A stretch of 63,617 nt of DNA, filler included, from an uncultured Methanosarcinales archaeon (GTDB lineage: Archaea; Nanobdellota; Nanobdellia; Woesearchaeales; CALCXY01): assembly GCA_964385185.1 (NCBI GenBank). It is 5 parts of 5 records of this genome, joined end to end, with 100 filler letters (N's around TTAATTAATTAA, not from the genome) between each part and the next. Parts side by side here need not be neighbours in the genome. Positions count along the whole stretch, not along the records: positions 34,340 to 49,081 come from CAYLOA010000028.1; 4 more parts are not named here. One strand, written 5' to 3'. Positions within the stretch are counted from its first letter, which is position 1; the number at the start of each line of letters is the position of its first letter. This document shows, in pieces, positions 39,001-42,000 of this stretch. The position numbers were made by a program.

Positions 39001-42000
39001 GCTTCTTTTAGGTGGATTAGTGATATCATGAAAATGAACGGACCAGAGGAGACGACTAAGTTACTAGTCGACGGCAACGTAGTACAGGGATTTCGTAAAA
39101 CGAAATCCCTGAAGCTAAAATAATGAACGGACCAGAGATAAAGCGGAATTGCTTCCGCAGACCTCTGGTCCTACTCTTTTGAACGGACCAGAGGAGATTT
39201 GAACCGACTGAAAGGTCAGCTCGACACCCTAGTAGTAAGGGGATCCACTTTGTGGACCCCTCAGCTAAAATAATGAACGGACCAGAGGAGACGACTAAGT
39301 TACTAGTCGACGGCAACGTAGTACAGNNNNNNNNNNNNNNNNNNNNNNNNNNNNNNNNNNNNNNNNNNNNNNNNNNNNNNNNNNNNNNNNNNNNNNNNNN
39401 NNNNNNNNNNNNNNNNNNNNNNNNNNTCCACTTTGTGGACCCCTCAGCTAAAATAATGAACGGACCAGAGGAGATTTGAACTCCCGACCTATCCCTTAGG
39501 AGGGGATCGCTCTATTTGCCTTGTGTTTTACACATCCAGACTGAGCCACAGGTCCATAAAGAATGAGGGTTGAAAACTGTATTTAATAGTTGTGGTAGAG
39601 TGGGTAAATGTTTAAATATTGCCAGGAGTATGCATTATTATGGCAGAGGAAGTCTGGATTTGGCAAGATTTTTGCAAATTAACTGTGTACAATAGAAATA
39701 TTTATATACTGTTTCTCTAATATTAATGTATGGCAAACACAAAACAATTCGCAGATGAGATGGTAAGAGATTTTGGAGCAATAGATGATTGGACACCCGA
39801 TCAAACTTATAAAGTAGCTAAAATGATTGTTACTGGTCCTTTAGGTAAAGAAATTGCAAGTGGGAATAAGAGATTTTTAGATCAAGCTGTAGGTTATCAT
39901 GAGGATAATTTTAATGCTATCGCAACCGGTAAGAAGAGTTTTCAAAAATATTCTAATGGAATTAAAAATCATATTAAAAGGGCACTTCCCCATCAGTGGG
40001 GTCATATAGCCGCAGGAGGTGATGGACCTGTTGCAGGAGGAGTGAGAGGATATGACACCATTATGAGAGAATTGCATGGAATTGATAATTTATCTGTTAA
40101 TGGAATTATCCAACTTACTAGAGAAGTTACCACTGACCCTGAACTTTCCAGTGTTCGGGGGCAAGCTCCAAATATGAAGACATTAGGTATGATATTGGGA
40201 GCATATGATAGTAGGGTTGACAAGGATGGAGTACCTACAGCTCAAGAATATCTTCATAGTGCATCGAGCTCAGGAAAAATTCGTCTTGATTCCCTAAAAA
40301 ATATTCTAAAAAAATCCTACTTGCCGAACTTGGAAGGTCATCTTTCGAAACGAGCCAATAGATAGATTTATTGATAGTTATTTGATCTAACAAATTAATT
40401 AGATTTTTAAGTGAGTAATTGTTTCTATTTCTTATGTACAAAATAAAAGAAATACCCGAGGATTTTAAGGTAGATGAGATAAGTAATGTTGAGGTAGAGG
40501 ATAGTGGTAAGTATCTTTATTTTCTTATGAGTAAGAGAGATTATACTACACTTGAGGCTTTACAGAATGTTGCTATGTTGATGAATGTTCCTAAAAAGTT
40601 TTTGGGTTTTGCAGGGACTAAGGATCGTCGTGCTATTACTTCTCAAATGGTGAGTTGTCGAAATTGTAAAAAAGATAAGCTATCAGGAGTTAAGATTGAG
40701 GATATTTCTGTTGAGTATAAAGGATTTGGAAGTGAGCCCATCTCTTTAGGAGATTTAAAGGGGAATGCATTTGAAATTGTTGTTCGAGAGGTTGAGAAGA
40801 AGCCTAAGCATGTTGATAAAGTTATTAACTATTTTGGAGAACAACGATTTTCTAAGAATAATGATGATATTGGTAAATTATTAGTGCAGAAGAAGTATAA
40901 AGAAGCTGCTCAGTTAATTGCAGAGGGAGAAGGTAAACATGAAAGGGATGTGCGTGAAGCCCTTAATTTTCAAGAGAATGATGCTATTGGAGCTCTACGG
41001 AATGTTCCTAAGAAAATATTGACATTATATGTCCATGCCTATCAATCTAAGTTGTGGAATGAGATGACGGTGTTGGACAGGGAGGAAATTCCAATTATTG
41101 GTTTTGGAACTGAAGTTGATGCAGATGTAGATGCCGTATTGAAAAAAGAAGGAATTTCATTTCGTGATTTTATCTTTCCTGCTATGCCTGAAATTAGTGC
41201 TGAAGGTGGAATACGAAAGAAATTTGTAGATGTTCATGATTTAGAGATTGGAGAATTAGAAGATAATGATCTTGGTGAAGGGAAGAAAATAGTTGTTAAG
41301 TTCTGGTTAGCAAAAGGATGTTATGGAACAGAAGTTGTTAAAGCATTATTTGAGAATTGCTAATATATCTTTGGTTACTTTTTTTATTTCTTTAGTTCCA
41401 TCGACTGATTTTAGAAGTTTATCTTTTTTATAGAGTTTTAGTAAAGGTTCAGTCTCTTTTTTGTAAATTTTAAGTCTTTCTGCTATGGGTTCTGGGAAAT
41501 CGTCATCTCTTTGAATTAATGGTGATGAGTCTTCATCACATACTGCGGGGTCTTTTGGTTTCGGCATGGTGTAGAGATTGTAGATATGGTTGCACTTCAT
41601 GCAGGTTCTTCTGTTCAGCATTCTATTTGTTGCTTCTTCGTCTGAAATTTTTATTTGGATGACTTTGTCTAACTTTGTAACTTCACTTAGTGCCTTAGCT
41701 TGAGGAGCTGTTCTTGGAAAACCGTCTAAGATGTAGCCTTTTTTTGTATCTTTGTTTTTAAGTCTCTCTTGGACCATTTGGATTACAAGTTCGTCTGGGA
41801 CTAATTCTCCACTTTTCATAAAAGAATCTGCTTTTTTACCTAATTCTGTTTGTTTCTTTAGATGTTCTCTAAACATGTCTCCGCTACTGATATGTGGGAT
41901 TTTTAGTTTGTCTTTTAGAATTATAGCTTGAGTGCCTTTACCAGAAGTTTGTTTACCTATTAGGAGTATGTTCATAAGGATTAAATTGGGAGAGGGTTAT

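Follow-up and report, generated by a model that had tools for sequence, protein, structure and literature searches.

Short non-coding inserts of about 40-95 nt, all built of a T-run, a first hairpin, a linker and a second hairpin, constitute one superfamily that occupies at least 9 loci in the genome of an uncultured woesearchaeal archaeon (GenBank assembly GCA_964385185.1). Its members are found at tRNA 3' ends, at tRNA 5' ends and at stop codons, and at most sites a second copy of the end of the gene lies beyond the insert. The best explanation that we can offer, tentatively and at somewhat less than an even chance, is that these are non-autonomous, gene-less integrative cassettes ('mini-islands') which consist of an attachment site only and are moved in trans by an enzyme that can be named only as a candidate, probably a tyrosine recombinase. 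This reading starts from the observed anatomy of the unit, the abutment of hairpin 2 on the copy, the preservation of the target genes, the spread to many targets and genomes, and a selection signature in the repeats.

Anatomy and spread of the insert superfamily

The period of the unit, its parts A and B taken together, is 89-150 bp, and relative to the gene the inserts may point either way. Type 1 sits at tRNA-Arg, tRNA-Met, dcd and a gene on contig C3, and type 2 at two tRNA-Ser genes and a gene on C10; the same family is present on 7 different contigs at unrelated genes. An earlier survey of this genome had described discrete, repeated, non-coding inserts stacked at gene ends and one family serving unrelated targets, and both descriptions hold; its sites at tRNA-Met, dcd, tRNA-Ser(GGA), tRNA-Ser(UGA) and tRNA-Tyr (with two bPH_2 genes) were all found again, and re-scanning reproduced its count of 6 genomic sites for the type-1 motif. 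The two insert types that it kept apart prove to be related, and its report of 0 copies of tRNA 5' ends has to be corrected: tRNA-Arg(GCG) on C17 has one such copy (21 nt, 2 mismatches) and three more lie upstream of tRNA-Ser(GGA). Covariation was counted for hairpin 2 only, where 2 of the 6 pairs counted show changes on both sides; the MAFFT alignments of hairpin 1 are not structural. Hairpin 1 is conserved in structure, running in the order stem, GA, 2 bp, loop, 2 bp, GA, stem, and the T-rich start could end transcription of the upstream gene.

The sister species G001 carries the superfamily at 6 of 19 tRNA loci, and there a type-1 relative stands behind a different tRNA than in the present genome, which records mobility since the split of the genus. 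Other members were recovered from further Woesearchaeales families and from one Methanosarcinales, one Patescibacteria and one gammaproteobacterial genome, the last two having the same layout behind their tRNAs, and direct repeats of gene ends provide additional cases in G001, G017, G084, L084, L121, L135 and L131. In a scan of 400 further genomes of the order the type-1 motif gave 0 sites, with about 6 matches for a reversed-pattern control. Viral contigs gave 0 matches to the hairpin-1 core and 69 to the type-1 pattern, which we assume to be chance matches because the pattern allows 17 gap lengths. A literature search with the hairpin-tip sequence returned one unrelated paper, and neither keyword searches nor passages of Nanobdellota preprint text yielded a description of such mini-elements.

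The array behind tRNA-Arg(CCU)

In the window, by which we mean the whole analysed stretch of 63,617 nt including filler, at least 5 short inserts form an array 3' of tRNA-Arg(CCU) (39461-39555, minus strand, as are all array features below except the assembly gap). Directly after each insert comes a tRNA-end copy of 11-21 nt with a trailer of 4-6 nt, and three kinds of insert are mixed: types 1a and 1b and an unrelated one of 41 nt. The tRNA gene, which holds the intact and functional copy of the target end, is recognised by Rfam model RF00005 (30.4 bits, E 0.00096); ARAGORN reports nothing in the window, and it misses this tRNA because of an insert of about 20 nt in the D-loop. Next to the gene (39427-39460) come the trailer TTCATT (6 nt) and then the opening 28 nt of a type-1a insert (39427-39454), which take in T-run/AGC and the 5' arm of hairpin 1 and match exactly the beginning of the complete 1a insert further along. 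This insert is cut by an assembly gap of 100 N (39327-39426), at which the contigs of 4 metagenome runs break too, and beyond the gap stand the closing 35 nt of a type-1b insert (39292-39326; TACTAC, linker and hairpin 2), 100% identical to 39053-39087. As a 1a start thus faces a 1b end, at least one further unit is hidden, and the gap must contain at least the remaining 1a sequence, one copy of the tRNA end and the beginning of the 1b insert. Gaps of 100 N are also present on C7 and C22.

The remainder of the array is continuous. A tRNA-end copy of 14 nt (39278-39291), spanning T-loop position 60 through the discriminator, leads with its 6-nt trailer (together 39272-39291) to a complete type-1a insert of 67 nt (39205-39271; nhmmer E 2.9e-14) consisting of T-run/AGC, a bulged hairpin 1, TACTAC, linker and hairpin 2, whose predicted RNA fold of -27.6 kcal/mol was matched in stability by 0 of 200 shuffles. 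After it come a 21-nt copy that starts at G53 (39184-39204; 39180-39204 with its 4-nt trailer) and the 41-nt insert (39139-39179), which was delimited by reading the sequence, has no match to the family HMM, and contains one hairpin with an inverted tRNA-end copy and then a second, short GC hairpin. A degenerate copy of 11 nt with a 3-nt deletion (39128-39138; 39122-39138 with a 6-nt trailer) separates this from a complete type-1b insert of 69 nt (39053-39121; nhmmer E 5.1e-14), which has a perfect 12-bp hairpin and a fold of -24.3 kcal/mol, again with 0 of 200 shuffles as stable. The last copy, 14 nt (39039-39052) with a 6-nt trailer (39033-39052), runs into unique flank and the next gene, an ORF of 344 aa from its likely ATG (37959-38993, minus strand); longer ORF calls that extend into the array (39077; 39056-39316) were rejected as artefacts of the repeats. 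The extra copies of the tRNA end reported by the survey are present, although four rather than three are visible in the minus-strand reading and the gap hides at least one more. The chance expectation for an exact 20-nt recurrence within 500 nt is about 5e-10. Rfam covariance models run on window positions 38000-40500 with E up to 10 matched the tRNA only and none of the inserts.

The internal junctions of the array are present in metagenome contigs of 4 runs from 4 studies, and depth over the 1b part in these contigs is about 3x that of the flank, which fits 3 genomic copies of 1b. The array is thus not an assembly artefact, a possibility that the survey had left standing. Of the 20 runs, from 17 studies, in which this organism is present, none is listed as RNA. 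No empty site or excision joint was seen in the contigs of the 4 runs, which as contigs drop rare variants, and a metagenome scan with the neighbour protein gave only relatives at 46-49% identity, with no upstream tRNA and no orthologous empty site. A same-genus genome has another gene end at its dcd locus and other synteny downstream of it, and therefore offers no empty-site comparison there. The visible copies in the array are identical to the tRNA save for the one 3-nt deletion, and hence the array by itself cannot tell integration from duplication.

Position and divergence of the flanking copies

Across this genome a direct repeat spans the gene end, with the gene regenerated, at 8 of 10 sites, and only 0-1 nt separate hairpin 2 from the copy, likewise at 8 of 10 sites. 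Target genes are never broken at the insert sites. The length of the copy is not fixed (11-45 nt), and 3 of 11 family members (those on C3 and C10 and the 'type 3' insert on C7) have no flanking copy, so the survey's statement that every insert ends in a gene-end repeat is valid for most members only. At tRNA genes the copies carry 4-21 nt of trailer beyond the tRNA end, and the distal copy begins either at G53 or at position 59-61, i.e. at the edges of the T-loop, which is a classic crossover region of integrases. Copies are identical in most tRNA cases, and the changes in copies of the G53 type all fall within the T-loop (once at tRNA-Met and twice in G001). The distal copy on C17 has a change in the acceptor stem at which it would not pair with the 3' strand of the gene; an argument from the C17 promoter, where a native TATA box adjoins that copy, was dropped as ambiguous. 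At protein genes either the insert or the repeated block has its edge exactly on the stop codon in 6/6 cases (dcd, C3, C10, C7 'type 3', the array at C22:13316 and the gene at C5:10684). We also considered microhomology, with the 3' strand of hairpin 2 mimicking the sequence upstream of the copy, which fits dcd and in part tRNA-Met, and rejected it on account of tRNA-Arg and type 1b.

New here are differences between flanking copies at protein genes that are biased towards third codon positions. Three pairs, one of them from another genome, show differences: the tail of an SRP54-like gene (locus L131), the gene ending at C5:10684 and dcd on C31. Their 26 differences are distributed over the three codon positions as 7/2/17 (P = 0.0008 for at least 17 of 26 at third positions), with 14 synonymous versus 7 non-synonymous codons, and both copies of each pair keep the frame and the stop codon. 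This third-position excess indicates that the repeat is not a fresh duplication of the target; an in-situ duplicate free to decay would not look like this. On this small sample, at least one copy of a pair must therefore have come in from a functional gene that had diverged in another lineage, as happens in genomic islands. The survey's term 'fresh copy' accordingly fails at the protein genes.

Candidate enzymes and a possible mechanism

Nine enzyme families were searched in the genome, whose completeness by markers is 100%. RVT_1 (PF00078), Cas1 (PF01867), PF07282, Y1_Tnp (PF01797), Resolvase, IS110 and rve had 0 matches, and no endonuclease candidate was found. Phage_integrase had 5 matches, namely one XerA equivalog, one XerA-like protein, one divergent integrase and two C-terminal integrase fragments near tRNA-Ala and tRNA-Val; no integrase gene is inside or linked to any insert, all of them lying elsewhere in the genome. 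The two XerA-like proteins are encoded at C34:8888-9703 and C16:141-959, and an integrase of 327 aa at C6:3-983. The only DDE element is an intact transposase gene of the IS1182 family on C58, a family that may be listed with repeats of up to 60 bp. Its ends have no other copy in the genome, the element looks to be flanked by 4 nt, and the one family member whose repeat length could be read, ISPse1, makes repeats of 4 bp (PMC3281130); on the grounds of the single-copy ends and the ISPse1 repeats we rejected it as the mover. The inserts have no terminal inverted repeats.

Under the integrative-cassette reading, the unit would comprise the T-rich start, hairpin 1, a short linker, hairpin 2 and, as a spare copy, the last 11-45 nt of the target gene, and would be inserted, as a small circle or an equivalent form, by conservative recombination within the terminal segment of the gene. 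The gene would for that reason stay whole and a second copy of its end would come to lie beyond the insert. With the target end regenerated, further cassettes could enter at the same place and build up the tandem arrays at tRNA-Arg and tRNA-Met, to which unequal crossing-over may add units. The recombinase would act in trans, and the candidates that we found are tyrosine recombinases only: the two XerA-like proteins, the divergent integrase and the two fragments beside tRNA genes. The family would also have to acquire new target ends. In phage Ms6, attB is in a T-loop and retargeting by a changed attP core is reported (PMC1762012).

Alternative explanations

Several of these features would suit transposition with a long and variable target-site duplication, in which some unspecified transposase or one of the IS1182 family cuts the two strands at gene ends with a stagger of 11-45 nt, the cuts are filled in, and selection spares only duplications that span the gene end. 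One family at many unrelated targets with a target-specific copy, the two orientations, the variation of repeat length from 11 to 45 nt, the identity of most tRNA copies and the intact IS1182-family transposase all agree with it. We nevertheless regard it as unlikely in view of the third-position bias in the protein-gene pairs, the edges placed exactly on stop codons in 6/6 protein-gene cases, the lack of terminal inverted repeats in the inserts, the absence of other genomic copies of the IS ends, and repeats of 4 bp in ISPse1 (PMC3281130) and apparently 4 nt around the copy here. The pairing of a foreign with a native copy and the abutment of hairpin 2 on the copy are accounted for by homology-guided break repair ('homing') without a dedicated recombinase. 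In this scheme, which requires no enzyme absent from the genome and could operate in Bacteria as well as in Archaea, the layout being present in the two domains, a break or nick near the gene end (e.g. in the T-loop) is repaired by copying the gene end and insert from a donor locus or genome, and the distal copy serves as a built-in homology arm for re-annealing. However, no endonuclease candidate was found, recombination through arms of 11-20 nt is inefficient, a family could spread inside one genome only through illegitimate events that are rare, the scheme gives no account of one family reaching at least 9 loci, and an occupied allele keeps the gene/copy junction, leaving its immunity to re-cutting unexplained; we hold break repair, too, to be improbable.

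Local tandem duplication or replication slippage at the hairpins, or an assembly artefact, would dispense with a mobile element altogether. Hairpins favour slippage, the units of the tRNA-Met and tRNA-Arg arrays are near-identical, one T-loop change is common to both distal tRNA-Met copies, and two arrays contain N gaps. Against this stand the same family on 7 contigs at unrelated genes, three kinds of insert in one array, related inserts in other species and the junction contigs in 4 runs of 4 studies; as the sole cause slippage or artefact is largely refuted and very unlikely, but slippage may be what increased copy number inside the arrays. Hardly credible is retroposition, in which element RNA is reverse-transcribed at a nick in the manner of a SINE, with variable duplications, and the distal T-loop changes are read-through errors at modified bases of the mature tRNA. 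It would explain repeats that vary and are sometimes absent, the T-rich junction, the copy boundary at T-loop position 59-61 and the confinement of changes in G53-type copies to the T-loop, yet the genome has no reverse transcriptase (0 matches to PF00078), the copies include 4-21 nt of trailer that is absent from mature tRNA, and the dcd copy stops at the stop codon and not at the mRNA end.

The integrative-cassette reading, which we prefer, also has evidence against it. Its main weakness is the one foreseen by the survey, that a single att site is hard to square with unrelated targets; this objection stands, for with one family at unrelated targets each member would need to bring a target copy of its own. 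A free circle of about 90-150 bp of double-stranded DNA would lie at the lower limit of what known tyrosine recombinases handle, or under it, the lower spacing for excision by Cre being about 82 bp. The occurrence of both orientations relative to the gene, as with transposons, the 3 of 11 members without a second copy, the lack of an integrase linked to any insert, the contigs of 4 runs without an empty site or excision joint, an array in the window whose copies fit duplication as well as integration, and the small number of protein-gene pairs (three) behind the selection signature count against it as well.

Implications

If the integrative-cassette reading is right, elements of less than 100 nt, comprising only recognition hairpins and a target copy, would achieve site-specific integration; they would be the smallest integrative elements known to us and a natural case of 'programmable' targeting through a carried target copy. 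The 21-nt tip of hairpin 1 recurs at 63 loci in the species-representative genome set, where chance would give about 2; the majority of these loci are GTAG-tagged palindromes of bacteria, and with this presence in bacterial REP-like repeats and the layout in the gammaproteobacterial and Patescibacteria genomes the phenomenon may be general. We put forward as a possibility, on balance a doubtful one, that hairpin-only attachment-site cassettes in Archaea and Bacteria owe their insertion to housekeeping tyrosine recombinases of the Xer type, or to break repair with the spare copy as homology arm, are retargeted by copy swap, and could drive the fragmentation of tRNA genes and odd intron positions in DPANN and other archaea. 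They could be agents of such fragmentation because they enter T-loops and leave behind tRNA fragments, promoters and hairpin inserts. The integrative-cassette reading would also supply a testable origin for three traits common in small archaeal genomes: tRNA fragments out of place, inserts in T-loops, and additional promoters or terminators. For annotation, ORFs called across such arrays should be treated as artefacts, and such cassettes will escape any island finder for which an integrase gene is obligatory.

Relationship to known systems

The inserts are reminiscent of genomic islands and integrative elements (Islander logic; archaeal SSV- and pNOB8-type elements) in that the target is regenerated, a displaced or spare fragment remains at the other end, the crossover region is at the T-loop and elements accrete in tandem at one tRNA. 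Phage 21 and e14 at icd have copies with synonymous changes, as do the inserts. Unlike these islands, which are kilobases in length and have an integrase, the present inserts are 40-95 nt long with no integrase and no gene, and one family serves many unrelated targets, gene 5' ends among them, in both orientations. The 1.8-kb recombinase element with a tRNA-Thr fragment in Caldiarchaeum (PMC3293823) belongs with these islands.

With REP, BIME and REPIN sequences the inserts share small size, intergenic location at gene ends, occurrence in arrays, and conserved structure with covarying sequence. In types 2 and 4 the two hairpins have GTAG between them, and in L131 it stands at the base of the first; G017 lacks it, and type 1 has it only as TACTAC on the other strand. 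REPs are not known to us to duplicate the end of the adjacent gene, and the REPIN-RAYT system needs a Y1 HUH transposase, which this genome does not have (Y1_Tnp, 0 matches). MITEs, insertion sequences with long duplications and casposons resemble the inserts in being non-autonomous with direct-repeat flanks, and casposons target tRNA 3' ends, make 14-15-bp duplications and stack in tandem; unlike all of these, the inserts lack terminal inverted repeats, have repeats of no fixed length that bear a selection signature, and occur in a genome without Cas1. CIMEs are kilobases long and integron cassettes insert at attI with no copy of a target gene end, in both respects unlike the inserts. CIMEs and the integron attC are, however, attachment-site elements moved by a recombinase encoded elsewhere, as we propose for the inserts, and attC is recognised as an imperfect hairpin and not by its sequence.

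The tRNA-Arg(CCU) array

The array lies on contig C28 of a source genome of 1.30 Mb (35.5% G+C, 85 contigs), of whose contigs the window is a chain; window positions are contig positions plus 34339. It starts with a tRNA-Arg(CCU) gene at 39461-39555 on the minus strand (Rfam, 30.4 bits), which ARAGORN overlooks because its D-loop holds an insert. This insert of about 20 nt (39514-39537, minus strand) occupies a non-canonical intron position, and ARAGORN calls no tRNA in the whole 63.6-kb window, despite an intron-bearing tRNA-Thr on the same contig (C28:7687-7782).

The units of the array follow a uniform grammar, namely the tRNA end with a trailer of 4-6 nt, a short insert, and the tRNA end once more, beginning 0-1 nt past the last hairpin of the insert. 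Four extra copies of the tRNA end are visible (14, 21, 11 and 14 nt), and at least one more unit must be hidden, since the start of a type-1a insert faces the end of a type-1b insert across a 100-N gap. The inserts belong to subfamilies 1a (67 nt) and 1b (69 nt), accompanied by an unrelated two-hairpin insert of 41 nt. Four runs, each from a different study (hydrothermal vent, seawater and marine metagenomes), have contigs with the internal junctions; no contig skips a unit, and the 1b-specific part is covered about 3x as deeply as the flank, matching the three genomic copies of 1b. The array is thus no product of assembly. An 86-aa ORF (39056-39316, minus strand) and the first 28 codons of a 372-aa ORF call (38994-39077, minus strand) are made of the repeat array and should not be annotated as coding.

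A single family of double-hairpin inserts

An HMM built from nine copies of the element recovered from the source genome nine full-length members (E 7.5e-15 to 3.9e-8) and the two pieces flanking the gap of the tRNA-Arg(CCU) array. At least two members lie behind tRNA-Arg(CCU), with others behind tRNA-Met (C7), dcd (C31), a gene on C3, tRNA-Ser(GGA) (C22) and tRNA-Ser(UGA) (C6), beside a gene on C10, and upstream of tRNA-Arg(GCG) (C17) on the opposite strand. The two types of insert that the survey had kept apart belong together, as this one model joins their members. The survey's count of six sites for the strict type-1 motif holds in the source genome; the motif is absent from 400 further genomes of that order, and a reversed-motif control yielded about 6 matches in 401 genomes.

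The family members share a plan: first comes a T-rich stretch that closes with AGC or the like, then hairpin 1, a linker and hairpin 2, the linker being TACTAC in type 1 and containing GTAG in types 2 and 4. Hairpin 2 keeps six pairs across the nine copies, two of them changed on both sides. The stem of hairpin 1 varies in sequence between copies, with some G.U pairs on the gene-sense strand; its folding beats all 200 shuffles in five of nine copies, and all but at most 7 in seven of nine. Many members, here and in other genomes, have in common a hairpin-1 architecture of a 6-8-bp stem, GA, 2 bp, a 3-9-nt loop, 2 bp, GA and the stem.

Copies of gene ends at the insertion sites

At eight of ten sites the sequence right after hairpin 2 repeats a stretch 66-420 nt upstream, and in every case this stretch comes from one end of a gene. 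The tRNA-type copies comprise the last 14-24 nt of the tRNA plus the trailer; for tRNA-Arg(GCG) it is the first 21 nt, read on the other strand, and for dcd the final 36 nt, ending exactly at the stop codon. Three members are devoid of a second copy (C3, C10 and the C7 'type 3'), two of which directly abut the stop codon of a convergent gene. Scanning the whole genome for direct repeats at short range and inspecting the results uncovered further cases in which the inserts are of other families. The 5' end of tRNA-Ser(GGA) is present in three copies, in units of 59 nt; a type 4 tandem array (C22:13316-13640, holding a gap) repeats 23 nt from the end of a gene on the minus strand; at C6:38776 a ribosome-binding site together with its ATG is copied over 23 nt; a gene terminating at C5:10684 has its end copied; and C24 has a hairpin end in intergenic DNA. 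In all six cases at the ends of protein genes, the stop codon marks an edge of the insert or of the repeated block. The inserts lie in either direction with respect to the gene.

A thresholded scan of 31 tRNA genes (30 called by ARAGORN plus Arg-CCU) found a same-direction end copy for five, and inspection by eye added Ser-UGA and the 5' array of Ser-GGA. The two remaining matches of the scan are inverted, one of them to another tRNA-like sequence.

Several other loci deserve mention in their own right. Behind tRNA-Ala (C11:11585-11700) and tRNA-Ser(UGA) (C6:12705-12800) lies a second, diverged 3' part of the respective tRNA, whose T-loop is split by a two-hairpin insert of 51-56 nt; about 600 nt beyond the one behind tRNA-Ala there is an integrase C-terminal fragment. 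Between two genes at C4:64300-64700, hairpin units recur in tandem about every 53 nt, with an N gap in the array; they resemble BIME-like arrays, and two units bear the GA...GA hairpin on the minus strand. At C11:18282-18464 and C2:6554-6680, internal tRNA-like segments of 19-33 nt are duplicated 100-120 nt apart around spacers holding TATA-like boxes; ARAGORN calls no tRNA at either, and these may be split or rebuilt tRNA genes.

Occurrence in other genomes

In the only other genome of the genus (G001, 77% complete), end copies occur at 6 of 19 tRNA loci. One of its inserts is clearly related to type 1, sharing the T-run/AGC start, TACTAC and GTCGA, while its hairpin stems differ with compensating changes and it sits behind a different tRNA. 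Four genomes from other families of the order have copies at 3 of 30 tRNA loci, a count that leaves out three rows reflecting similarities to neighbouring tRNAs. The case in the complete genome G017 displays the same hairpin-1 architecture as the source genome; at this locus (L071), upstream of the tRNA at about position 1500, a neighbouring tRNA has an 18-nt insert inside its T-loop, and between the two tRNAs lies a second copy of the double-hairpin element, which adjoins the 5' end of the next tRNA with its hairpin 2.

A search of the order for the hairpin tip, allowing one mismatch, matched 4 of 121 genomes, including one (G084) where a tRNA is followed by an insert and a 15-nt copy. With one genome per species, the 21-nt core of hairpin 1 was found at 63 loci versus about 2 expected, most of them bacterial, where it caps REP-like palindromes tagged with GTAG. 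ARAGORN called a tRNA in three of the 63 (Methanosarcinales, Patescibacteria and Ectothiorhodospiraceae MAGs), and in all three a copy of the tRNA end follows the insert, with three tandem units in the Ectothiorhodospiraceae MAG. The 21-nt tip (loci L080-L142) reads stem, GA, GC or AC, GAA or AAA, GC or GT, GA, stem, and also occurs in GTAG-tagged palindromes of Xanthobacteraceae, other Alphaproteobacteria, cyanobacteria, Desulfobacteraceae, Planctomycetota and Bacteroidetes. This sharing could reflect either common ancestry or convergence on a hairpin that is very stable.

Origin of the copies and possible mechanisms

Were the copies produced by target duplication at insertion, they would have been identical at first, and their later decay would be blind to codons. 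The three protein-gene pairs that are not identical depart from this: differences at codon positions 1/2/3 number 3/0/9 in an SRP54-like tail of a Nanoarchaeota MAG (L131), 3/2/6 in the gene ending at C5:10684 and 1/0/2 in dcd, in total 7/2/17 (P = 0.0008 for at least 17 of 26 at third positions). Leaving out the first codon of L131, which may not belong to the repeat, has no effect on this picture. Over the three pairs 14 codon changes are synonymous and 7 non-synonymous, and both copies keep the frame and the stop codon. This, with the third-position excess, implies that both copies evolved within working genes; judging from the substitution pattern, one copy of each pair has come in from a diverged lineage. 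The same logic is seen in genomic islands: the Islander work (PMC4383910) describes island sequences that restore a split gene, with the displaced fragment marking the far end.

Five distal tRNA copies are altered in ways that would not be tolerated in a working tRNA. Ser-UGA has two changes side by side in the acceptor stem, Arg-GCG has one acceptor change, and both copies behind tRNA-Met have a change at a conserved T-loop position. At the G001 loci L031 and L038 the copies show the same extra T in the T-loop; both begin at G53, in different tRNAs and with different insert subfamilies. We take these changes as suggestive at most, since a useless fragment could also come to show them as it decays.

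Based on these observations we tentatively propose, at somewhat less than even chance, that the inserts are non-autonomous integrative cassettes. Each cassette would consist of the double-hairpin core and a copy of the target end, and would enter by conservative recombination within that end, leaving the gene whole; its T-run would provide a terminator for the gene, and the regenerated gene end would accept the next cassette, thereby building arrays. In favor of this, distal tRNA copies start at G53 or at 59-61, the borders of the T-loop; a claim made in PMC1762012 is that changing the attP core can send an integrase to other tRNA T-loops. The tyrosine recombinases described below also speak for it. 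Against it count the absence of any enzyme linked to the inserts, the very small circles implied (89-150 bp), the many targets served by one family, each of which would need a carried copy of its own, and the lack of any empty site or circle in the metagenome contigs of four runs. Transposition with a long target duplication and break repair with the copy as homology arm we regard as rather unlikely, each to the same degree. Slippage alone seems very unlikely, and retroposition still more so. A mixed history is possible, in which rare duplicative insertion at new genes was followed by recombination spreading units between lineages.

Candidate mobility enzymes

Among nine DNA-mobility enzyme families searched in the source genome, only tyrosine recombinases (five matches) and one IS1182-family transposase were detected, and no enzyme linked to the inserts was found. 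The recombinases include two XerA-type proteins (C34:8888-9703 and C16:141-959), both adjoining contig ends, one reaching the equivalog cut-off and the other just below it, as well as two integrase C-terminal fragments near tRNA-Ala and tRNA-Val. Two XerA-type recombinases thus coexist in a 1.3-Mb genome. The transposase gene (C58:168-1736, minus strand) is single and intact (523 aa, 410 bits); its element has inverted repeats of about 16 nt and apparently sits in the loop of a long hairpin with 4-nt flanks, and the end of C58 overlaps that of C26 by 55 nt.

Comparison with known systems

The inserts of the array match no Rfam family (window 38000-40500, E up to 10), and our literature searches turned up no description of gene-less inserts below 100 nt that carry gene-end copies. 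Casposons are excluded as their identity, there being no Cas1 in the source genome. Unlike MITEs, the inserts have neither terminal inverted repeats nor a fixed duplication length; they look similar to REP/BIME sequences, but are without a RAYT and have in addition the gene-end copy. Their layout works like that of genomic islands, which, unlike them, carry an integrase inside the element. The nearest published case (PMC3293823) is a recombinase element of 1.8 kb in Caldiarchaeum that holds a tRNA-Thr fragment.
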